A stretch of DNA of 63,508 bases, the filler included, from Reticulomyxa filosa (lineage: Eukaryota; Protista; Foraminifera), in the NCBI GenBank assembly GCA_000512085.1. It is 20 parts of 20 records of this genome, joined end to end, with 100 filler letters (N's around TTAATTAATTAA, not from the genome) between each part and the next. Parts side by side here need not be neighbours in the genome. Positions count along the whole stretch, not along the records: positions 16,286 to 24,199 come from ASPP01018931.1; 19 more parts are not named here. The stretch is one strand, 5' to 3'. The position numbers and the translations under genes are program-made. Under the pieces are notes generated by a model. The model was not told the origin of the DNA. It worked only from the letters and a program-made list of their open reading frames with translations, and searched no databases. Below, piece by piece: positions 20,269 through 55,455 of this stretch. Within the stretch, counting starts at the first letter, position 1, and each line of letters starts with the position of its first letter.

Positions 20269-23200
20269 GGGAACTAAATACCAATAAAGTTGAAAAAGAA
20301 GAAGAAAAAGCACAAGTTGGAGAACTAAGCTCGGGAATCAATTTGCAAGGTTTATGTTCCAAACATGAATGTTTAGCTGCCAAAACACATTTGCCAGTGT
20401 GGGTTAATGTCGGCTTTAAGGAATCCCTTTTATTGAATGGTATGGATTGTGTGAACTTTCCTTTCTTTGTCCGAATTGCGGGAGCACTACGGTCAAATCC
20501 ATTAGCAGAGTGACATTCATTAACTCAGAATTTTCAATTCGTATAATCAATGGCAGCAACAGTGACAATAAAGATAATAAGTCTGTTATTCAAGATAATC
20601 GTCATCAATGTACATACTCCATCAAGTTTGGAGTCTCTTATGAATTACAAGCAACAAAAATTAAACAACATACAAAAGTATTGGGAGAATTGATATTGAA
20701 AAGTCAAAAAGCAATGGACAGCGATGAAATGAAAAACTTGGTTAAGACATTGAGACAATATCACATCATAGTGGTTCAACCAAAATTAAAAGGAGAGGAA
20801 AGATTAAATGAAAAGATAGAGCATGAGTATGCGAAAAATTGTGATGAAATGTTTGATATTGGAAGATTCACTATTCTATGTAAGAATAAACACCAATTAG
20901 AAACAGCTGTGACAGTACTGAAAAAAGCAAAAGATTTCGGAATGATTGTGTCCAAAGATAAAGATTGCTTTAATAAACAATCGGAAACGCATCATAGATT
21001 TCATAACATCACATTGTTTGTTCCAAAATACGATGTTTATATTGAAATGCAAGCAACATTAGAAAATTTCACAACATTAAAAGGTCATTCTATCATTGAA
21101 AATCCCGAGCTCAGTCATTTGTATTATGAAAACATAAGAACATGGAAAACAAATAATTCAGAAGATGATGATTTGAAACAAGCAAGTGATGAAACGCTAA
21201 CTAAAATTAATGATATTATTTGTGAATGGACAGAAGAAAGAAATATTACAAGAATAGCAGCTCGTTATCGAAAATATTTGAATGAAGGAATATTAGAACC
21301 ATTACAACTGAAAGGTAAAACAGAAGAAGACGTTAAAAATAGTATCCCATTGAAGATGGCTCAATTTACATATAGTCAACTTTGTCAATTCAAGCCACCA
21401 ACAACATTAAAAGGTAAAGCAGTTTTCATGGTATTGTATGATTATTATAAAAAATATATTATCGGTGAAGACAAACCAGTAAACTGTTCAGACATTGCAG
21501 CAATATTGCAAGATGCAAGAATTGAAGAAATAGAAAAAGAAGATATTGTCAGTTCACAGGCATTATTAACATATGTTCCTTTGCAAGCTAATTATGAGCA
21601 ATTTTCCGAACAAGAAAAAAAAGGTGGTGATGCATTTGATTGTCATAAACATGTCCTAGAATTTCTTGAAAAAAAAAGTGAAATAAAGCAAGTAATGATA
21701 ATTCAAGGAAAATCTGGATCTGGAAAAAGCTTATATGGTTGTTATTTAGAGGAATATTTGTGGGAGTGTTTTACTAACCAAAATGAAACTACACAACAAC
21801 AGATTATACCTGTATTTATTTCATTACCAAAATTCTATAATATGAACATTGATGAATCACAACTTATATATCAAATATTACAATCCAAATCAAAATATAT
21901 TCACAAAGATATCATTGACGCTGTTCGTCATAAACTCCAATTTGTCTTCATTTTAGATGGATTTGATGAAATATTTGATTTATATAACAAACACAATGAC
22001 AATTTCAACAAATATTTTTATGATCGTTTCAAATTAAATGAATGGAACGCAAAAGTGATTGTGATATGTCGAAGTAATGTATTGAGTGAAATGGATATCA
22101 AAAAGATGCTGGTTGGTAACAATAACAATACATCCAAAATATATTTGTGGCCATTTTCAACCAGACAAATAGATGATTACATTACGAAATTTGTAAACAT
22201 GCAACAAAATATAAGAGATAAAACCAAAGATAAGAAAGAAAATTGGACAGCAAATCAATATAAAGAAACATTAGATAAATATCCCAATTTTTATAAAATG
22301 ATACAAGAGCCATTTCTTCTTCGTTTGATATTGACAGTGTTACCATTATTAAGTAAAAAACATGATATTGGAGCCAATATATCAAAAGTTCAAGTATATG
22401 ACGTATTCTTACATCAATGGATTGACGAACATGTTCAAAATATATCCAAAAAATTGAATGAATTAAAAATAATTACAAACAAAGAAGAATTGAAATGTTC
22501 ATTTCAAACATATTGTGAAGATTTGGCCTTTGACATGTTTTTGCAAAATGAGCAAGTTGTAACAGATAATGAAATAATATTTGATAATTCAACGTTATTA
22601 TATTCAAATGTTAATTCAATTATTAACTTTGATATTTGTGATCATGATATGAAACAAGAAAAAAAATCAAATGAAGAAAACAAAGAGAATACAATTGAAA
22701 TGACACGAAAAAATGACAAAGGAGATGTATGGAAAAAGTATTTCAAGGCTGGTAATATTAATAAATTTGCATTAAGACGAATTGGTGCCAATCAATACAC
22801 ATTTTTGCATAAATCATGTCAAGAATATTATGCTGCACAAAAAATCTTATTTGATATCATTTTATGGGAACCTAATGTCGAAACACATGCCCAACTTCTT
22901 CTTATTAGTAAAAAATTGTTAAATGAGGAAATGGGAATTATTCAATTCATTGCAGATAGGATTTATGACAACAATTTGATGTTTGTAAATTTAAAATCAC
23001 GATTATTTCGACTAATTGAATTGTCAAAAGATAACTTAAAAGTGTCTACTGCAGCAGCAAATGCAGCAACAATACTCAACGTAGCAAGAATTAGCATGAG
23101 TTACCAAAACTGGGATAACATAAATATATCAAAAGCCATTCTAGATCACGCCTTCCTTGAAGGAACAAGTTTCAAAGATGCCATCTTAAATGGCGTGAGC

Positions 23201-24199
23201 TTTTATAATGCTTATCTCAATTATACCGATTTCACAAACGCATCAGTAAATCAGATTAATTTTGGTACATACGGCTATCTCAAGGGTCATTCAGATAATG
23301 TTAATTCTGTCCAATTTTCACCTGATGGCAACAGAATTGTATCTGGTTCAACGGATGGAACCATTCGATTGTGGGATGCATCATCTGGAAAACAACTTCA
23401 ATTATTAAAAGGCCATTTATCTTCTGTTTATTTTGTTCAATTTTCACCTGATGGTGACAAAATTGTATCTGGCTCAAGAGATACAACCATTCGATTGTGG
23501 GATGCATCATCTGGAAAACAAATTCAATCTTTAGAAGGTCATTCAGGTTCTGTTACTTCTGTTCAATTTTCACGTGATGGCAACAGAATTGTATCTGGCT
23601 CAGAAGATAAAACCATTCGGTTATGGGATGCATCATCTGGAAAACAAATTCAATTATTAGAAGGTCATTTATTTCCTGTTTATTCTGTTCAATTTTCACC
23701 TGATGGTAGCAGAATTGTATCTGGTTCATTGGATAGAATCATTCGATTGTGGGATGCATCGTCTGGAAAACAAATTCAATCTTTAAAAGGTCATTCAGAT
23801 TCTATTAACTCTGTTCAATTTTCACCTAATGGTGACAAAATTGTATCTGGTTCAGGAGATAAAACCATTCGATTGTGGGATGTATTATCTGGAAAACAAA
23901 TTCAATCTTTAAAAGGTCATTCAGATCATATTACTTCTGTTCAATTTTCAGATGATAACAGAATTGTATCTGGTTCATGGGATAAAACCATTCGATTGTG
24001 GGATGCATCATCTGGAAAACAAATTCAATCTTTAGAAGGTCATTCACATAAGGTTACTTCTGTTCAATTTTCACCTGATGGTAACAGAATTGCATCTAGT
24101 TCATTTGATAAAACTATTCGACTGTGGGATGTGTCATCAGGAAAACAAATTCAACCTTTAGAAGGTCATTCATTTCGTGTTAATTCTGTCCAATTTTCA
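20269..24199 (+). CDS. NLR-like STAND protein: C4 Zn domain - RelA/SpoT-like NTase - NACHT - pentapeptide repeats - WD40 array (3' truncated)
   Basis: The ORF from 20447 runs to the contig end. Motifs: LKGEERLNEKI...FDIGRFTI...HHRFHN...IEMQAT...SHLYYE; Walker A GKSGSGKS (~21708); Walker B FVFILDGFDE (~21941); FLHKSCQEYYAA; AILDHAFLEGTSFKDAILNGVSF; at least 7.3 WD40 repeats. The upstream GINLQGLC...C...LPVWVNVGF is in another frame (frameshift ~20430-20450). Confidence 0.9.
23285..24199 (+). repeat. 126-bp tandem WD40-coding repeats, highly similar units
   Basis: GH codons at 23285, 23411 and onward give a 126-nt period (one unit is 123 nt). The framework SVQFSPDGxxIVSGSxDxTIRLWDxSSGKQIQxL is nearly invariant. 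The contig breaks inside the array. Confidence 0.95.
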
Positions 24200-24358: not shown

Positions 24359-25337
24359 TATATACGTTCTGTATTTGACTGTTTAAATGACTCAGATTGT
24401 CTTATTAAATTAAATGATATCATATTTTCTTTCTCTATTTGTTTGACAGGAGATATTAAAACATCAATACTTTCCAAATTACTAGTTAATTCGATATTTT
24501 TTCTTTAATAAGTTTTTCTTGTTTTGTTGTTTTTATCATTAAATTCTTTTTTAATAGTTTCGATACTTGCTTGACATTTTTGTAGTTCTTCTTTGATTAA
24601 CTTATTCTCTGCAATACTATATCCCTTTTTCAATTTAATTTCTTGTTGCATAGACAGAATTGTTTTTTTCAATAAAATGGATTGTGATTTCATATCCAAA
24701 AATACCTTATGAACTAAATAAAAATGTAATTTCATGTTTGTAATCAAATGACATTCTGAATCTTGATCCAAGCAGGTATGATTACAACCAAAACGTTTAA
24801 ACCAACAATTAACTAAGATTCCAATCTTGTTAGAGCAGGATTGCTCAGTATTTACTTTCTTTTTTGCGTCTAATGTTATTACATTTTGGTTTTTCATCTC
24901 TTTTTTTGGATTGGCAATTGAAAAATTATTAATATAAAGGAATACATGTCGATCAAAAGTTGAAGTTGTTTGAATGATTTCTGCTCCTGATTCTTTACCT
25001 TTAACTAACCCAGTAATGGATTGTAGATTGTCAAATAATGGCTTGGACGACTTACTATTTTCGGACATAACTTTACAAAAAAATTCTGTAAAATAACTTC
25101 CTTTTTCTTTTGTAGGATCTGACAAATCAGTAATGTATTTACCAGGAGTTGTCGAATATATTAATAATGTATCTGATTCACGGTTATATGATTGTTGTTG
25201 ACACTCTTCTCGACATGCATTTTTTATGAAAATTTTTGGTTTGTTCAAAAACATATCTGTATCTTCTGTAAAAATTTCTTGCACTTTCTTAAGTAATTTA
25301 TATTTCTTATCGTCTGGTGTAACTAATGCATCTCCTT
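24359..25337 (-). CDS. Caspase-like (C14) domain C-half fused to TRAF-type Zn finger and coiled coil; partial, probably disrupted
   Basis: GDALVT...KPKIFIKNACR...DTLLIYSTTPG...GSYFTEFFC is the caspase p20/p10 pattern. It is followed by VNCWFKRFGCNHTC...ECHL....KLHF (TRAF-like finger) and a K/E-rich coil. There is a frameshift near 24510 and a MITE at the 3' side. Confidence 0.8.
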
Positions 25338-46215: not shown

Positions 46216-48776
46216 TCATTCACAAACACGAATGTGGCCTTTGTATGAGCCATAATATAGACTAGCACTGTAATTATCGTTTGATTTTTGTTCAATATTC
46301 TTTATTTTCTTTTTCAATGGCACAAATTTAAGACAACATATTCCGCCATCTTCATTTTCATTTCCTTTAATCACATGCAATTGATTTTTATTTGACCGAA
46401 TATCCCAAAAACGAATTGTATTATCTCTTGATGCAGAACATATCACATTTGAACTATCATTATTCTTTATTACAAATGGTGAATATTCAACAGCATATAC
46501 ATAGCTTGTATGTTCATTGAATACTTGAATTTGTTGGCAAGATCGAATATCCCACAAACGAACGCTTGCATCTTCTGATCCAGATAATATTGTATTTCCT
46601 AATTCATTTGATCTATATTTTACACTCCATATACAATCTTTGTGTCCTTTGAATACAATCAATGATTTGGCTGTTTCGACATCCCATATACGAATAGTAT
46701 TATCATTTGATCCAGAACAAATTGTATATCCATTACCACCAATCACGCCAATACTATTACTTTTATTATTATTGCTTTGTAGTGGTGAAAAATCAACACA
46801 CCGGACCCAATTTTCATGTGCATTGAAAATATTTACTGATTTGGATGTTTCAACATCCCATAGACGAACAGTCCAATCTCCAGATCCAGAACACAAATAT
46901 CGACCATTATTAAATGGCGAAAATTCAATGCCACAAACAGCACCAGTATGTCCATTAAATAAATTTAATTGTTGATTATGTTTAATATCCCAAAAGCGAA
47001 TTGTTTTGTCCGATGATGAAGAACAGATAATATTACAACAATGATTATAGTAATGATACGATGAAAATTTCACACAGTATACATAATCGGAATGTCCATT
47101 AAATGATCGAATTTGTTTGTTAGTGTTAATATCCCATACACGAACTGTATTATCATTTGACCCAGAGCAAATAAATTGTCTATCATTGAATGTTGAATAA
47201 TCAATACTCCAAATAATATTGGTATGTCCAGTGAGTGTATTGACTAATTTGGATGATGAACGAAACAAGTCAAAATTTGATAAAGATGACTGATTGGATT
47301 TGACTTGTAATAATGGATTATTGTATTCACTTGTTTTATCTTCATTATGATTAACATTTATTTGATTAATTTGATCTTTGCTTGATTTAGTTTCATTTTT
47401 CAATTGTTCAATTTCAGTTAGTAGGTTGTCCTAATCGATGTTATTTTATTTGTTTGTGTTGTAAACTGAAATACAAAAACAAAACCTACCAACTGTTGTT
47501 TTAAGATTATGTTGTCGTTATTTATTTTTGAAACCACTTCATTTTGTTTTTTTTCATTTAGTTGCCTTTCTGACTTTAAATGTTTGATATCATCCTATAT
47601 TTATTATTTTATTCTTATTACTATCATTGATTACATGATTTGGATTACTGGCTCAAGTGATAGTACACATATATTATACTGACAAATTTTTTAAAAAATG
47701 GCAAGTGTTTACATTTAGTTCCTCAATTTGTTTGTGTTGCGCATCGCTGTTTCTTTTCACAGGTCCTTCCAATTTGTTCGTGCAAATGTTACATTCACCT
47801 TGGCATTGTTCAAATTGCTTCTTGAATTGAATAATATTTTGGTCAATTTCTAATTTCAATTGTTGGATATTTTTTGTCAATTCGGCTATTTGTGCATCTT
47901 TTTTCACAGATTCACATTGTAAATCATCAATTTGTTTCTATTGCATTTTAACAATTCAAGGAGTAAGTAATCAATAAAAAAATCACAAAAAATATTCTAA
48001 AAATAGAAATGTGTACATTAAGTTGTTGAATTTGTTTGCTTTTTTTATTGTCACTTTCTTTCAGATTTTCAATTTCCTTTTTATTTTTTAAATGAGCTTC
48101 TTTTAATTCTTCCTTTTTTTTTTTTATGTTTGTGTATTTTTCCTTTGTTTTTATGATTTTATAATGATTACAATTCATAAATAAACGATGACGAAACCGT
48201 TTGTAATTTTTCCGTTTGCAATTGCGATTGCAATTCTTTGACCAATGAAATAATTTGCTCAATTGAAATTAATTGGCATGACTTGTCCAAATGATCTTTC
48301 ATTTCCTTTATTTTTCCTTTGTGATTGCATTTGCTTTTTGAAGTCCAATTGGTTTCGTCTTCGTATCCTTCTTTTTCTCCTGGTCTTATCCCTTCTTTCG
48401 ATTTTCTCTGTTCCAAATCATATTGTCGAGGACAGACTACTAATAAATCTGAAACTTGCTGTCTCGCTATTCTATTTTTTGAAAATTCGCAATTATCATG
48501 CTGTTGAATTGGGCATTTGCCATTGTTTTGCTTTAAATACGTTTGTAGACATTCTTCTCCGATCAAATATACTTGGTCTGCATTTTCGTGCTCATTGCAT
48601 TGTAATTCTACTGCGTTATTTGCAACTTGATTGCAAAGACAACATATTAATGGGTTTAAATTCTGTAGTCTGTTGGTCAAAAAAATCCAGTCTTTGTCAT
48701 AACAACCAGAACTGGAAAATATTTCTTTTTCATGTTTCAATTTTTTCCCATCCCTTTCCAAATTCAAGGCTAACAT
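46216..48776 (-). CDS. RING - TRAF-type Zn finger - coiled coil - WD40 protein (TRAF7-like architecture, putative E3 ligase)
   Basis: CCLCNQVANNAVELQCNEH...GEECL...CP (variant RING) is followed by CP...CNHKGKIKEMKDHLDKSC (TRAF finger). Several short coiled-coil exons lead to ~7 divergent WD40 repeats in 47403-46216. Confidence 0.85.
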
Positions 48777-49210
48777 TAGCGTTTCTTTATCTTGATGAAG
48801 AGTTTTTTCCAAATAGTTTTTGTTTAGAAAGGGACCCACTTTTTAGCGTGGTTTTTTTTTAGAGCATTCAATATCTTGCATAACGTGTTCTTAATTTAAA
48901 AAGATAAACTGTACATTCAGTTGATGAAAGCAACAAGGACAAAGTATTGTTCTTTGAAGATAATTTCAAAAGAAGATTAATACCGCTCTTGGATTATTGC
49001 TATAATTTTTTTTCACTTCGCAACGAGAATATACAAAAGATGAAAGATAGTATAGAGTTGGAATGTCATTGTGTAATCCCTTAAACGTTTATTGATATCA
49101 TTAATTTTTATGAAGGAGAAGTTGGCATATTTCTAGAGAATTTGAGCAGAAAAACTTTTACAAAAAAAAAGACTTTGAAATTGGTTTTTGAACTCCTTAA
49201 AGAGTTTGAA

Positions 49211-49998
49211 ATGCGCACACTTCAAGTTGCGACCAATCATGTTGTTGGTGCAAATAAAGATGCTGAATCTTTGGCTACTGTTACAAATGAGAGAAGATCT
49301 CTAACTCAGTACTCGGTAACCTACTCTCTTTTTCTCTTTTTGTGTATTATTTATGATTAAAAATGAAAAAATTTGTTTTATTATTAGTTAAAAGAAGCAA
49401 TAAAGATTGTTATTAAAAATTGGTTAACAATTGTAGAAATAAAATTGGATGAATTGATGAATTTGATATATTGGTTACTAAATATGTTAAGTATAATTTA
49501 TAATTAATTATTTTAAATTATTAAATATTTTACAAGAACATACTGATAAAATAAATAGTGTAAGATTGTTTCAGCATCAGATGATATGACAATTTGAATA
49601 TGGAATTCTTCATCAGGAGAAGAAATTACATTCTCATTGGGTAAAAGTTACAGAATTTTCTCCTAATAAAAATATGATTATATATTACAAATCAAGAATT
49701 TATTGTTTCATGCTCACGTGATAATACAATTCAAATATGGAATGTATAATCTGGAGAATTACTTAAAATATTAAAAGGACATTTATCTGTTATTTATGAA
49801 GTACAATCTTTTTCAAATAATCAAATTATTATATCTTGTTCAACTGATAAAACAATTCGTTTATAGAATGTTAAAACGGGATATGAAATACAAAGATTAA
49901 ATTAACATTCTAGTACAGTAAGATGTGAGGATATTTCATTCAATGAAAGTACAATTGTATCAGGATCTGGAGATTGTGCAATTAGAATTTGGAGATAA
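49211..49998 (+). pseudogene. WD40-family pseudogene
   Basis: KIVSASDDMTI*IW, SCSRDNTIQIW, GHLSVIYEVQ, SCSTDKTIRL* and SGSGDCAIRIW occur with multiple stops and frameshifts. Confidence 0.85.
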
Positions 49999-50227
49999 AA
50001 TAATAATAATTCGAGTTTTACATTGACCGTTTTTCTTTGTTGGTGGGAGTATTCATTTTCAATTTTTTTAAACTCTTTTTATGTTTTTAGTGAAAACTTG
50101 TCACTCATGAATTGGAAGTTGAAAACAACCTTAAAAAGTTTATTTTTGAATTTTGAAGAAAATCATTATGCAAAAACAAGAAAATATGTTTTATTTTATT
50201 TGTTTATTTTAATTTTTTAAAAGATAT

Positions 50228-52064
50228 TTACACAGATATCCTTTGTTGGAAGAGGATGTCATAATCAGTTGTGTCCTGACTTTCTACACAATACCATTCA
50301 CCACTTTTATTGCTGCGAATATCCGTTCTGATATCTTGCAACATTTGCTTAAATGGATAACCAATCTTATATTGTGATGTGATAACTTTTTTAATGCTTT
50401 TGCTCAGCAATGACAAATCAGCTACTTGATGCCCCTTTGTGGTTGACCAAATACTCAGAAATCCATCGTCGTTATGTCCATATAATGTTTCATTTCCTCG
50501 TGTTGTAATTTCATGAGCTTTTGGAATACTTTCACCACGACAAGCATCAACTATAAAAATTTTTGGGAAATCTTTGAATGATTCCATTTCGTGACAATTA
50601 AATGATGAACGTATTCTATCAATGGATACATATTTTCCATCGCTTGTCACTAACATATTTCCATTATCTCCGTGTCCACAAATGATCACAATTAATCCAT
50701 CATATTTGTGAGGATTTTTATGAAGTTGATAATTTGTAACTAGTTCAAATAGAAATGATTGAACATCTTGTTTTGTCATATTCGAAGATAAATTACATAC
50801 AATTTCATAATTCAATTCTTGTTCAAATAATTGCTTAAAATTCGTAATGTCCTTTTCTTTTACATTCGGGAGATTACGCCACATTGTATTGTCCATATAT
50901 TCACTAATAGCAATCATTATTACCAATGCATTCTTAATTGTTTTTGTTTTTCCAATTATCGCTGGCCGTTGATACGGAGTCCAAAGAATTTTAAATGTAG
51001 GCTCATTACTTTCAAATTCTTTCTTCACTTTTTCATCTGATTCAATAATATTATCTTTTACATCACTCAATTCAAGTTTTAAATTTTCATTTCTCATTTT
51101 TTGAAAGTCCTTCCATTCCAAGCAATAATAACTTTGACAAACAAGTTCTTCAAATGTCAATCTTTTTACTTTTATCTCTTTTTTTCTTTCGTCTACGATC
51201 ACATATGCTGTCAACTATTTAATATATTGTAATTGTAACTTGAATCAAAAAAAGTAAAAGAAACATAATTAACTTTCTTTTCTATGCTATCTTGATTGCC
51301 CTATTCGTTCAATTACATAATGCATACATTTGATAAATTGTAATAAAATAATAAATAACGTAACAAAAGCAAGAAAAGCATCAATAGAAAAGCAAATAGA
51401 ATCAATATCATTTTCTGTGATTTCATTTTTCCATTTGCATTTATTCAATAACCATATCACAAACTGTTCATTTGACAATGCTTTAAACTTTTCAATTATA
51501 GTTGTTTTGTCTTCTTCGTTTTTTTGACTCCACCATTTTATCCATTCTTTATCTTTCTCCTGTTTTATTTATTTTTGCAATATTTGTTCAGTGCAAAAAA
51601 AAAGATAGAATATAGTCCTAACATTAATCTTTTTAGGTTTTGTCAATTCTTTATCTTTGCTTTGTTGATCTTTTTCTTGCGCTTGTTCTTCTGTTGTCCT
51701 AGTGTAGTAATCATCTTTTAAAAAAATATCGTAAATCAATGAAAAAAATAACATACACAATTTCTTCTTTATATTCATCAAATTTTACCGGTCGTCCGCA
51801 TACTTTGTGTTCTTTGTTTTTTCTATTTTATGTTTTTATATTAGTTGTTTGTCTTTGCTGACATTTTGAAGATCCAAAAATATAATCAAACCTTGCTGGC
51901 CACCATTTGTTGACTTCAGCAAATTTATATGGATAATTTCTTTGTTTGCAAAACGCAAGCATTTGCTTTGTGTCATAGGGATAGTGTCCAACATGTACTT
52001 TAAATTCTTGGCTGATGTCATCCAACGATTTTACATCGCTTTCCTCGCCGGATATGTCAGACAT
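50228..52064 (-). CDS. Caspase-like protease (peptidase C14) with helical N-terminal segments and a PB1-like domain
   Basis: Multi-exon gene starting at ATG 52064. The last exon has NALVIMI, the catalytic ICGHG (His codon ~50673), PKIFIVDACRG (~50540) and the p10-like DGFLSIWSTTKG. The preceding ~80 aa carry a beta-grasp/OPCA-like pattern (LTFEEL...LSDVKDNIIESDE.V). Confidence 0.88.
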
Positions 52065-53018
52065 AATTTTAAATATATCAAATGAAAAAAAAATACTTTT
52101 TTTCTACTCAAAAAAAAGGCTAAGAGGTACAAAACAAGCAACGTATTTAGTAATCTCAAAACGTTTATTTATACTAATATTTTTTAAATAAATATGTAAA
52201 TAAAGGTTGAGTATTAAGTAATTTAAAAGCTTCTACTAATTCCGTTTATTCAATTTTAGAAGTTGTGATGGTCCATGCTGATAACACTCGTTTTCGACTT
52301 TGTATCTCCTTTTCGAACTTTTTTTGAGTGGCTGTCCCATTTTTGTCCTGATCTTACTACGCACGAACAAAAATACGAGATTTTTTGCATTTATAATCAA
52401 TTTTTGAACTGCAAAAAGAAAAAACCACATAGAGAAGTATGACATTTGCGTCCAGACCAAGTAGTAAAAAAAGTTACGTAAATATTGACGGTTCATAGTA
52501 CAAAAAAAGTCTATGCATATATGTACATCTTGTGTGGGTGTACAAAAAGAAATCGATTTTTGATTTGTACATGTTCACAACAGGTATCCAAAGAATTCAA
52601 GGTATGTTAAAAATTTCCACCAGAGATTAACAAATAGAAACTTCTTTTTTTGTCGACATCTCTCGAAAGTGAAAAAAAAACAAATCCACATGATCATTTT
52701 TTGTAGGAAAGATATGCAATTACAACAAAGGAAACAAGATGAAATGGTTTGAGGTCGGTTTTATTTTTCATTTTTTTTTAATGAAAGATTTCATCTTTTT
52801 TTTTTGGGCATAACAAAAGATAATAATCAGTGATCATCCTTTGGAATTGATAAACGCAATGTGGTACCATGGAGGTGTTGTCGACAACGAAGATGTGAGA
52901 GTTTTTTCTCAAAATAAGAGTTATGAAGACAAAACAGTAAATATGCATATTATATATATGTATATATATGTATATATTTGTATGAACAAAGATTGCACAA
53001 CTATATTTAATAGATGAT

Positions 53019-55455
53019 GTGAAATGTAATGGAGGTATGCAAGACAAGAGCAATAGTAATTATACTGATACAAGTGGAAAAGATCGAAAATACGTAAAAG
53101 AAATAAGAGTATTAGTTAGTCTATTCGGAAATTCAATCAATGAAGAAGGATTACAACAGAAAATAGAATATCACAATGGAAATCTTGAATTGGTGATTAA
53201 AGATCTTGTTCAACAATCGATTGAAAATGAGGTATTAAAATAATATGAATAGCAGTGTCTTTCTATTTATCAATATTGATGTTTTATTCCTTTGTTACAA
53301 AAAAAAAAAAAAAAAGATAAATTAGAAGCAGAAAGCAAAATCAATGAATTGAAAGAAACAGAGCAGGTAATAACAAATTTACTTCCTTTATTTGTTTAAA
53401 TATTTCTTTTGTTTTTTGGGGAAATTGATAGAAACAAGTACAAGAAAACGCAGGAAATGAGGACAGTAGTAAGAGTATTCAAAAGGAAATGGAAAAAACA
53501 GAAATAGGAGAAACAAAGCCAGGAATTAATCTGCAAGGATATTGTAGCAATGGAACTTGTTTGGCATCAAAAGCCAAATTACCAGTATGGATAAATATTG
53601 GATTTGATAATATTACATTTATTTCGGACAAGGCATCATTTAGCTGTCCTGATTGTAAAAAATCAACTGCTAATGTAATTATTAAAGCCATGTTTTATAA
53701 CTCTGAACATTCCATTTGTGCAAGTGGTGATTTAATACCTGTAAAAGATAATAATTATCAATGTTCATATACAATCAAACCTGGGTTGTCTTATGAATTA
53801 AAAGCAAACAAAATAAGACAACATGCAAAGAGTATTGAAGATTTAAGAGAAAGGAGTGAATATGCAATGAATAGTATTGAAATAAACAATTTAGTAACAG
53901 AATTGCAAAAATACGAAATCACAGTTGTGAAACCACCTAGTTTAAAAGGAAATGAAAGATTATTGGAAAAGATTCAAGCAGATTATGGTGGTGATTTTAA
54001 TGAAGCATTTGATATTGGAAGATTCACCATTTTATGTGATAATCCAACTAAATTACAAACTGCAGTTGCAGTCATGAAGAAGGCTAGACAATTCAATTTG
54101 GTTGTGTCCGAAGATAAAGACTTCTTTGATAAACAATCAAAGACACATTATCGATTCCATAATATTAAATTGTATGTTTCAAAACATGATGTATATATTG
54201 AAATGCAAGCAACATTGAAAAATTTTACAACATTGGAAGGATACACTGTGATCGAAAATCCAAAATTTAGTCATTTATTTTATGAACATATTCGAGCATG
54301 GAAACCTAATAATCAAATTGAAGAAGAATTAAAACAAGCGAGTGATAAAACATTGACTAAAATCAATGATATAATTTGTGAATGGATTAATACAAAAGAA
54401 ATCCAAAAAATTGCAAATCGTTACAAGCCACATTCAGAAATTCGAATATTGAAACCTCCACAACTGAAAGGAATAAATGAAGAAGAAATTAATTCCAAAA
54501 ATGATATTTCATTAAAATTGATCAAATTTGTTTATGATCAACTTTGCAAATTCAATCCAAAGGAAATGAAAGGAAAAGCTATTTATGTTATTTTATTTGA
54601 ATATTTCAAAGGATACATTATTGGTGAAATGAATCCAGCGAGTTGTGCTGATGTTATATCACTATTAAAAGAATCAAGGAAACAAGAATTAGAAGAAGAT
54701 ACAACAATTTCACAAGCACTTGAAACATATATTCCATTACAGGCAAACAATTATCCATATACTGACGATGATAATAATAAAAAAAGTGATTCATATGATT
54801 GTCATCAATATATTATTGATTCATTAAGAGAAGAAAAAGAAGAAACAAAAAATGAACAACAACAAGTGATAATACTACAAGGAAAATCAGGAGCAGGTAA
54901 GAGTCTATTTTGTCGTCATTTAGAAGAGGCATTGTGGGAATTATATGCAAGTGGTTCTATAACATCCATTCCTGTTTATATTTCATTACCAAAATGTTAT
55001 AATGAAGTAAACGAAAAACAAATAATCTCTCAAGCACTACAAATGAAACAAATCAATAAAGAGATAATTGACGTTATTCGCGAGAATATTTCATTTGTGT
55101 TTATTTTAGATGGATTTGATGAAACATTTGACAAATATGATAAAAATAATAATAATGAAAGATATTTTTATGATCGGTTCAATTTAAATGAATGGAATGC
55201 AAAGATAATAGTAACCTGCCGAAGCCATGTGTTAAATGATGAAGATATTAAAAGCGTTTTAATTGGTTCAAAGAACATTACAACAACATCAATTATATAT
55301 TTGTGGCCTTTTTCAAAAGAACAAATGAATGGATATATTGATAAATTTGTAAAAATGAATAAAAAAAATAAAATGAATGATTATTTGAATTGGACAATAC
55401 AACAATATGAAACAACATTGAAAAATTATCCAAATTTAAATAAAATGATGGAAGA
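53019..55455 (+). CDS. NLR-like STAND protein paralogue 2: CUE/UBA-like - C4 Zn domain - RelA/SpoT-like NTase - NACHT (3' truncated)
   Basis: An exon EIRVLVSLFGNSINEEGLQQKIEYHNGNLELVIKDL and two short introns come first. Then GINLQGYC...CPDC, LKGNERLLEKIQADYGGDFNEAFDIGRFTI, HYRFHN, IEMQAT, SHLFYE, GKSGAGKS (~54881) and FVFILDGFDE (~55094). Collinear with the 20.3-24.2 kb gene. Confidence 0.9.

Follow-up and report, generated by a model that had tools for sequence, protein, structure and literature searches.

A large NACHT-WD40 receptor-like family in the foraminiferan Reticulomyxa filosa carries a predicted Tas1/Apk1-like alarmone synthetase domain

Results

Two receptor-like genes in the window

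The foraminiferan Reticulomyxa filosa (Rhizaria) encodes a large family of receptor-like proteins in which a domain related to RelA/SpoT-type alarmone synthetases stands ahead of a NACHT module and WD40 repeats. Here, we describe two members, gene A and gene B, from a 63,508-nucleotide stretch of assembly GCA_000512085.1 (the window), which consists of 20 contigs joined by N44-TTAATTAATTAA-N44 spacers; gene order across these spacers carries no meaning. Gene A lies on a 7,914-bp contig (16286-24199) and gene B on an 11,042-bp contig (44414-55455). Linkage of the two was rejected, as they lie on different contigs, and their nearness in the window is artificial because the contigs were artificially joined. 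An original prediction, made from the sequence alone, had proposed that both encode NOD-like receptor (NLR)-like proteins with a RelA/SpoT-type effector. The features of gene A are as follows:

20270..20458, +: acidic/basic linker and first half of a four-Cys N-terminal domain (GINLQGxC...C), from translation in six frames and from tblastn comparison with gene B and the paralogues P0005 and P0008; its frame differs from that of the rest of the gene
20457..20459, +: single-base frameshift within the four-Cys domain, from the frame switch between tblastn segments, with a one-base gap nearby in the DNA alignment with gene B
20459..20707, +: second half of the four-Cys domain (CPxC, beta) and a helix into the synthetase; Cys columns kept in 54-55 of 55 rows
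20708..21244, +: Tas1/Apk1-like RelA/SpoT synthetase domain with His as its G-loop residue (Pfam PF04607 E 5.2e-5; alignment, profile and fold searches)
21245..21690, +: all-helical linker that matches 0 Pfam families; its gene B counterpart is helical in the model
21691..23090, +: NACHT module, then a helical domain whose end is approximate (Walker A at 21707 and Walker B at 21950; winged-helix motif FLHKSCQEY around 22802; Pfam NACHT E 2.3e-6)
23120..23263, +: pentapeptide repeats (Pfam PF00805 E 1.5e-8)
23279..24199, +: WD40 array of 7 repeats and a partial one, stopping at the contig end (Pfam WD40 E 2.4e-95)

Gene B has a similar layout:

53037..53231, +: probable upstream exon with a GGMQ motif, then a three-helix CUE/UBA-like segment (tblastn of 23 paralogue segments)
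53522..53830, +: four-Cys beta domain, probably zinc-binding (all-beta, predicted local distance difference test (pLDDT) about 90 in the model)
53861..54406, +: Tas1/Apk1-like synthetase domain with Tyr as its G-loop residue (Pfam PF04607 E 1.3e-5; AlphaFold model; Foldseek, VIA)
54407..54850, +: helical linker (helical in the model)
54851..55455, +: NACHT module, stopping at the contig end (Walker A 54881, Walker B 55103; Pfam NACHT E 3.1e-8)

Gene A thus runs from the four-Cys domain through synthetase, helical linker, NACHT and pentapeptide repeats to WD40, and has the NLR-like (NWD) layout of an N-terminal effector with C-terminal superstructure repeats; these are WD40 and not leucine-rich repeats (LRR), which places it outside NLRs in the strict sense. 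The Pfam NACHT match lies above its cut-off in both genes, and the gene B contig ends within NACHT, before any repeats. A 654-aa model from the Cys domain to NACHT (pLDDT 84, predicted template modelling score 0.77) matched NLRP3 and NOD2 for the NACHT part (Z 13-14) and Tas1 first for the synthetase. The four-Cys domain gave no sequence match in Pfam, NCBIfam or the PDB.

The synthetase domain is conserved and closest to Tas1/Apk1

Both open reading frames (ORFs) carry the five predicted motifs in the predicted order: LKG at 20786, FDIGRFTI at 20852-20875, HHRFHN at 20990-21007, IEMQAT at 21041-21058 and SHLYYE from 21113 in gene A, and LKG at 53942, FDIGRFTI at 54008-54031, HYRFHN at 54146-54163, IEMQAT at 54197-54214 and SHLFYE from 54269 in gene B. 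The domain is longer than the ~125 aa first estimated, measuring about 180 aa in full (20708-21244; 53861-54406), and although it lies ahead of NACHT as proposed, a ~145-aa helical linker separates the two and a ~110-aa four-Cys beta domain precedes it. It is also, as anticipated, better conserved than its flanks. Between genes A and B, the synthetase core is 63.8% identical, against 44.4% for the N-terminal Cys domain, 46.7% for the helical linker and 60.7% for NACHT; mean column conservation over 63 paralogue rows is 0.865 for the core, 0.729 for the Cys domain, 0.711 for the linker and 0.745 for NACHT.

Of 14 domain copies, 13 match Pfam RelA_SpoT (PF04607) at E<=0.1, the best of them at 3.2e-7, and two family members, P0003 and P0069, carry a precomputed PF04607 label. 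The window copies score just below the curated cut-off (23.9 and 25.8 bits vs 27); judged by these profile matches, the relationship to RelA_SpoT does not appear to be a chance one. An AlphaFold model of the gene B synthetase domain (pLDDT 82) places it in the RelA/SpoT homologue (RSH) superfamily: all 30 matches listed by Foldseek are RSH synthetases, with E down to 4e-7 and Tas1 at the top TM-score of 0.62 (E 7.8e-7), and the top 10 VIA matches are likewise all RSH (Z 10.1-12.8), with Tas1 at Z 12.6 (root-mean-square deviation 3.2, 160 aligned) and YwaC, Rel, Tas1 and RelQ tied at Z 12.4-12.8. Sequence profiles separate these relatives further. A 14-sequence family profile searched against the PDB matched Tas1 alone (E 0.003), and a 33-row profile including distant homologues gave 1e-29 for Tas1, 1e-11 for YwaC and 1e-5 for RelP and RelSeq. 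Where the original prediction looked to RelP, RelQ and CapRel, the SYNTH fold is as expected and the closest clade is instead Tas1/Apk1; by profile and model comparison, the nearest solved relative is this bacterial (p)ppApp toxin and not housekeeping RelA.

The active site agrees with this placement. The features of the RSH SYNTH superfamily are present, namely a nucleotidyltransferase-type fold, an Asp with its following Arg, the ExQ Glu, basic ligands and a distal His. The proposed parallel to RelA/SpoT motifs holds for the fold and fails for the first motif, which is K-x3-R-x3-K as in Tas1 and not K..S...K. The K-x3-S-x3-K and YxSxH motifs of canonical small alarmone synthetases (SAS) and toxSAS are absent: where canonical SAS chains have Ser and His, Tas1 and the R. 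filosa family have Arg and Asn. In gene B the relevant residues (P0002 numbering) are K172, R176, K180, D194, R197, Y240, N244, E257, Q259 and H281. All of these except Y240 are intact in 51 of 58 paralogues, a set from which 6 N-terminally cut rows and the gene B duplicate were dropped; the catalytic Asp and Glu are near-invariant, as they should be on the original prediction, and K172, R176, K180 and D194 are invariant in 51 distant homologues. The Apk1 ATP-site residues R330, N370 and E382 (PMC12691689) align with R197, N244 and E257, and a +21 chain-to-paper offset fits all three. One contig of run X1 spans the gene B domain and is about 90% identical to it. Of its 52 differences, the 38 listed and used comprise 27 synonymous and 11 non-synonymous changes (dN/dS about 0.07); by this comparison the domain appears to be under purifying selection.

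A large receptor-like family with a variable WD40 sensor

The predicted receptor family is borne out and is large, combining NACHT with variable WD40 repeats: the domain occurs in over 100 protein clusters of R. filosa. A domain search returned 64 proteins between 693 and 2205 aa long, every one labelled R. filosa, together with 42 no longer than 379 aa, of which 41 bear that label; these are counts of protein clusters and not of loci, because some proteins are fragments, and the 380-692 aa range was covered by a scan of 1.84 billion representatives only. Among 127 close matches, 83 cover D194-Q259, giving 75 cores under 97% identity. The 64 near-length proteins show Walker A in 61 cases, the sensor-1 pattern in 47, the winged-helix pattern F.H[KR]S..E[YF] in 51 and WD repeats in 46, with the Cys domain, Walker A and WD repeats occurring together in 37.

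A bacterial-type domain in a fragmented assembly, with gene A frameshifted, could reflect bacterial contamination or an assembly artefact in place of a eukaryotic gene family. We consider this highly improbable and largely refuted by the 64 near-length and 41 short protein clusters labelled R. filosa and by the 75 distinct cores among 83 rows. The GC content of the gene A and gene B contigs matches that of the remaining contigs of the window, and the gene B contig also holds caspase-like and RING/TRAF-WD40 genes. No phage matched the domain in tblastn, and pattern scans made with relatives, for their genomic context, confirmed nothing in GTDB genomes or JGI metagenomes.

Across 317 WD repeats from 46 proteins, positions 6, 7, 9, 10, 25 and 42 are hypervariable (>2.5 bits). 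In a small sample, the six full WD repeats of gene A, non-synonymous change is in excess at these positions: the non-synonymous and synonymous proportions (pN vs pS) are 0.54 vs 0.30 there and 0.09 vs 0.19 elsewhere. Work on fungal HNWD proteins reportedly places the hypervariable WD positions along the ligand face of the propeller.

Some copies depart from the common plan. P0003 and P0067 show tandem duplication of the Cys-synthetase-linker unit, and the first copy in P0003 lacks some motif residues. This copy and P0076 are visibly decayed and differ in look from the other synthetase copies.

Relatives outside R. filosa

The scan of 1.84 billion representatives with the domain profile gave 96 matches. 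Among 50 distant homologues scanned are fusions to MuF and eCIS-core, which are delivery domains of Apk-like toxins (PMC12691689), and others with TPR, LRR, kinase or DUF285 repeats. Two are named, from Guillardia (P0108) and Triparma (P0110). The Apk1-like clade is thus present in other protists, and for one of them, Guillardia, a standard survey lists 0 RSHs (PMC7229694 supplement). Together with P0112, P0134, P0137 and P0107, these proteins carry an Apk1-like synthetase fused to TPR, C1, kinase, LRR or DUF285 repeats, and some are algal. From such sequence matches, a wider and largely unannotated eukaryotic branch of the Apk1-like clade seems to exist. The best ESM Atlas matches (0.94-0.95) are unnamed, mostly bacterial clusters, one set having RelA_SpoT in 23% of its members, which we take as a lead only.

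Five of ten close matches looked up are environmental records (P0069, P0074, P0079, P0093 and P0095). The family is not confined to this assembly, since environmental P0074, at about 35-37% identity, still has the Cys domain, the synthetase and the linker. The closest outside relatives of the synthetase are the metagenome proteins P0113, P0101 and P0104. P0113 combines an N-terminal hydrophobic segment, ankyrin repeats, the synthetase and a NACHT of the same type as in the family. Its alignment with P0012 spans 835 residues at 26%, and a search for further relatives of about the length of P0113 found none. A 61-row quick tree left its deep forks open and did not join the three to the R. filosa family, and a second tree, which dropped 4 fragmentary rows and 9 of the longest branches and used 6 of 11 R. 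filosa rows, placed them as sisters of the family with support of 94/91, which falls below the starred threshold; both trees were built without Tas1, RelP or fungal sequences. From its domain make-up, P0113 would come from an intracellular bacterium, and NACHT gene transfers with intracellular bacteria have been proposed (10.1101/2022.07.19.500537).

Upstream segment and neighbouring genes

The GGM(Q) and three-helix segment upstream of gene B (53001-53231, +) is conserved in 23 of 63 gene models. The CUE/UBA reading of the helices is tentative (Pfam CUE E 0.15-0.17 in 2 of 14 proteins), and the sequence suggests that translation may truly begin at the GGM(Q) Met, or that the di-Gly may be a site of processing. 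A ubiquitin-like domain ahead of the GGMQ motif was considered; gene models gave it no support.

The window holds several further genes of note:

46216..47430, -: coiled-coil and WD40 ORF, gene B contig
48168..48842, -: RING/TRAF-like Cys-rich ORF, recognised by eye, gene B contig
50228..51214, -: caspase-like ORF with HG and DACRG motifs intact (Pfam C14 E 2e-19), gene B contig
49500..50000, +: WD40 fragment in decay, interrupted by stops and a change of frame
24505..25335, -: C-terminal part of a second caspase-like gene (Pfam C14 E 5e-11), then a Cys-rich and coiled-coil stretch that ends at the contig edge
3..1117, -: two exon-like ORFs, presumably resembling an M28-type metallopeptidase

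The first three (46216-51214, -) may form a single spliced gene or else a second cluster of immune type.

Discussion

A proposed receptor-gated alarmone synthetase

R. filosa, called a giant freshwater amoeba in a published abstract, possesses a receptor-like family whose architecture, fold, residue conservation, size and variable sensor positions we describe here. We propose that its members are NLR-like receptors with a receptor-gated toxic alarmone synthetase, a reading to which we give about an even chance; because the domain is related to a (p)ppApp toxin, these receptors would likely answer an intruder with a growth-stopping nucleotide. By analogy with STAND (signal transduction ATPases having numerous domains) biology, a foreign ligand would bind the variable WD40 face, and NACHT would swap ADP for ATP and open. 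Opening would free the synthetase from autoinhibition, with or without oligomerisation, and the four-Cys domain and linker could be the autoinhibitory parts. Since Tas1 is monomeric (PMC11782079), release from autoinhibition is at least as plausible as the oligomerisation originally proposed. If the chemistry follows Apk1 and SAS enzymes, the domain would use ATP as pyrophosphate donor and, as acceptor, a free purine nucleotide at its 3'-OH, the likeliest product being (pp)pApp and possibly (pp)pGpp, and the resulting ATP drain and block in purine synthesis would shut down the affected part of the cell.

Several observations weigh against this reading. Gene A carries the single-base frameshift, which public gene model P0004 skips and which may be either a real lesion or an assembly error, and the run X1 copy of the gene B domain may be newly broken because it appears to hold a stop at the R241 codon. 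No antitoxin, immunity protein or hydrolase was recognised among the long ORFs of the gene A and gene B contigs. In the sensor, the pN and pS values of gene A rest on six non-independent repeats and on positions chosen from family data including gene A itself. Within-protein WD repeat identity averages 58% (43 proteins) and between-protein identity 55%, unlike the about 85% internal identity of Podospora nwd genes (PMC4986451); the gene A repeats are 84% identical at the DNA level. The remaining points concern the acceptor loop and product. The G-loop residue, Tyr in gene B, is His in gene A, and among the 58 paralogues 50 have His, 7 have Tyr and 1 has Thr, a feature that the original prediction passed over together with the frameshift. 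In FaRel2, the G-loop Tyr stacks on the acceptor base and is needed for activity, which Tyr-to-Ala kills and Tyr-to-Phe impairs (PMC11782079; 10.1101/2021.04.30.441581). The clade consensus G-Y-R-D-x-x-x-N holds at its five fixed positions in 41, 38, 41, 38 and 31 of 51 distant homologues, 38 of 51 thus having the G-loop Tyr, and in the R. filosa family the loop is H-(H/Y)-R-F-H-N-x-K, with H239, F242 and K246 replacing consensus G, D and N. Nor does Apk1-like ancestry fix the product, because SaEAS is promiscuous and AaEAS and VpEAS make (p)ppGpp (PMC12691689). His in place of the acceptor-stacking Tyr would damp the rate or shift acceptor choice, and its presence in 50 of 58 paralogues makes both product and activity level uncertain.

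Three other explanations were weighed. The gating and the ATP donor could be as proposed with a tRNA or RNA 3' end, or another substrate, as acceptor, so that translation is blocked: residues on the donor side are near-invariant and the acceptor loop has moved away from the GYRD..N consensus, a departure common to the environmental relatives P0069, P0074 and P0079, and RSH toxins have switched to tRNA acceptors before (10.1101/2021.04.30.441581). We hold this to be unlikely, as tRNA-modifying toxSAS retain the G-loop Tyr (10.1101/2021.04.30.441581) and CapRel falls below Tas1 in structural comparison (TM 0.52 vs 0.62; Z 11.1 vs 12.6), with FaRel2 at Z 6.5. The loss of the Tyr from most copies, the sub-threshold Pfam scores of the window copies and the lack of another obvious effector domain, though the four-Cys and CUE-like segments could recruit partners, would also fit a pseudo-enzyme that binds ATP or alarmone, or works as a decoy drawing microbial anti-synthetase proteins, its sole role being to regulate NACHT. 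This too seems improbable, given that the Mg-binding Asp, the ExQ Glu, three basic phosphate ligands and the distal His are kept and more conserved than NACHT, that decayed copies exist and look different (the first repeat of P0003; P0076), and that Tyr is found in gene B and in 14 of 103 covering rows.

A low-output but active enzyme is a third, similarly slim prospect; it would supply a downstream host effector with a second messenger, or direct an alarmone at engulfed or endosymbiotic bacteria, and would not kill the host. His for Tyr would lower the rate as this explanation expects, and manipulation of bacteria has been proposed for fungal RelA_SpoT NLRs (PMC4986451). P0053 (1017 aa) would also suit a signalling output, having a predicted signal peptide, a repeat ectodomain ('vcbs repeat'), a transmembrane helix at 425-452 and then Cys and synthetase domains with no NACHT; it could be a single-pass receptor, yet as a single gene model it may be the result of a mis-join. 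The nearest characterised relatives, moreover, are toxins, and no nucleotide-sensing partner was found on the gene A or gene B contig.

In the reading proposed here, the domain is the main effector of a very large, diversifying family and descends from the toxin branch (Apk1) and not the housekeeping branch. Apk1-branch descent, purifying selection and the large family together yield a specific prediction, (pp)pApp, and natural Tyr/His variants in which it can be assayed. Should the synthetase be active, alarmone chemistry would extend to cytosolic eukaryotic immunity and offer a first molecular handle on foraminiferan defence or non-self recognition. We regard as doubtful a bolder version, in which 100 or more NACHT-WD40 receptors and at least one transmembrane receptor have as their signalling output a pyrophosphokinase derived from Apk1. 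Its rebuilt loop would yield a new product, nucleotide or RNA, and the synthetase-NACHT block would have been exchanged with an intracellular bacterium (relative P0113); such a system would stand beside cGAS and the TIR enzymes as a new nucleotide output for innate immunity in eukaryotes.

Our literature search agrees with the original prediction in finding no description from Rhizaria, with most subscription journals and the R. filosa genome paper outside its scope; it found none for Reticulomyxa either, with the supplementary NACHT tables of 10.1101/2022.07.19.500537, which could list these proteins, also outside. The main text of PMC13581612 contains no RelA or alarmone word, the supplements of PMC12691689 no Reticulomyxa, Guillardia or NACHT string, though these may give accessions alone, and the covered part of the PMC7229694 supplement no Reticulomyxa. 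RelA domains have been mentioned in other conflict systems (PMC7159879) and unplaced eukaryotic SAS noted (PMC3153485); in the parts of the literature covered, no eukaryotic NLR-like receptor with alarmone-synthetase output is described as tested. New here are a rhizarian expansion of very large size, an enzyme of Apk type that scores below the Pfam cut-off, the rebuilt acceptor loop, the transmembrane-receptor variant and a related ankyrin-synthetase-NACHT metagenome protein.

Comparison with known systems

The family shares with Tas1/Apk1, the (p)ppApp synthetase of the type VI secretion system in Pseudomonas aeruginosa (PDB 6OX6), the elements K-x3-R-x3-K, DY.GD, D..R, an Asn at Tyr+4, ExQ and a distal H..YE. 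Relatives of this enzyme have been described as Apk1, Apk2 and EAS (PMC10083569, PMC12691689). Unlike these, the window genes are fused to NACHT-WD40 in a eukaryote, and in the family the G-loop Tyr is mostly His. The N-terminal parts of genes A and B match neither PAAR nor MuF in Pfam, and both genes lack a DUF4157 domain and a signal peptide; because a PAAR/MuF delivery domain is absent we do not file them as Apk1 or Apk2.

With RelP, RelQ, YwaC and the toxSAS FaRel, FaRel2 and CapRel, the family has the SYNTH fold and donor-ATP site in common (Foldseek E 4e-7 to 1e-5; Z 11-13). In contrast to the K-x3-S-x3-K and GYxSxH of those enzymes, it has K-x3-R-x3-K and H(H/Y)RFHN, with no antitoxin recognised among the long ORFs of the two contigs and no pZFD, and is not filed as canonical SAS because the G-loop Tyr is absent in gene A and most paralogues.

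Fungal NLRs offer the closest architectural parallel. That a RelA_SpoT domain occurs there was noted in the original prediction, correctly; it missed that the complete RelA_SpoT-NACHT-WD40 architecture, with the three parts in the same order as here, is already tabulated (PMC4986451). The fungal class is rare, at under 1% of annotations (PMC4986451), with 14 T-NACHT cases making up 82% of the class in Sordariales (PMC12258605), and is functionally open (PMC4986451; PMC10197012). R. filosa, by contrast, has more than 100 models, with four-Cys, linker and pentapeptide parts in addition. Fungal RSHs are labelled FunRel, with 10 in Gaeumannomyces where Guillardia, despite its homologue P0108, has 0 RSHs (PMC7229694 supplement), and no fungal-labelled protein appeared among 20 distant matches of the family profile that were looked up. 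These indirect signs suggest that the R. filosa synthetase-NACHT fusion may be independent of the fungal one and may belong to a different subfamily from FunRel.

The receptor half resembles fungal NWD/HNWD proteins (HET-E/D/R, NWD2) and bacterial NACHT proteins (10.1101/2022.07.19.500537) in its effector-NACHT-WD40 order, 42-aa repeats and hypervariable positions. It differs from them in its lower repeat identity (58%), in an effector predicted to be a nucleotide pyrophosphokinase and in the pentapeptide repeats between NACHT and WD40. Judged by sequence and model, the proteins likely work as an Apk1-type pyrophosphokinase on an NWD-type receptor, outside strict membership of canonical SAS and of Apk1/Apk2.

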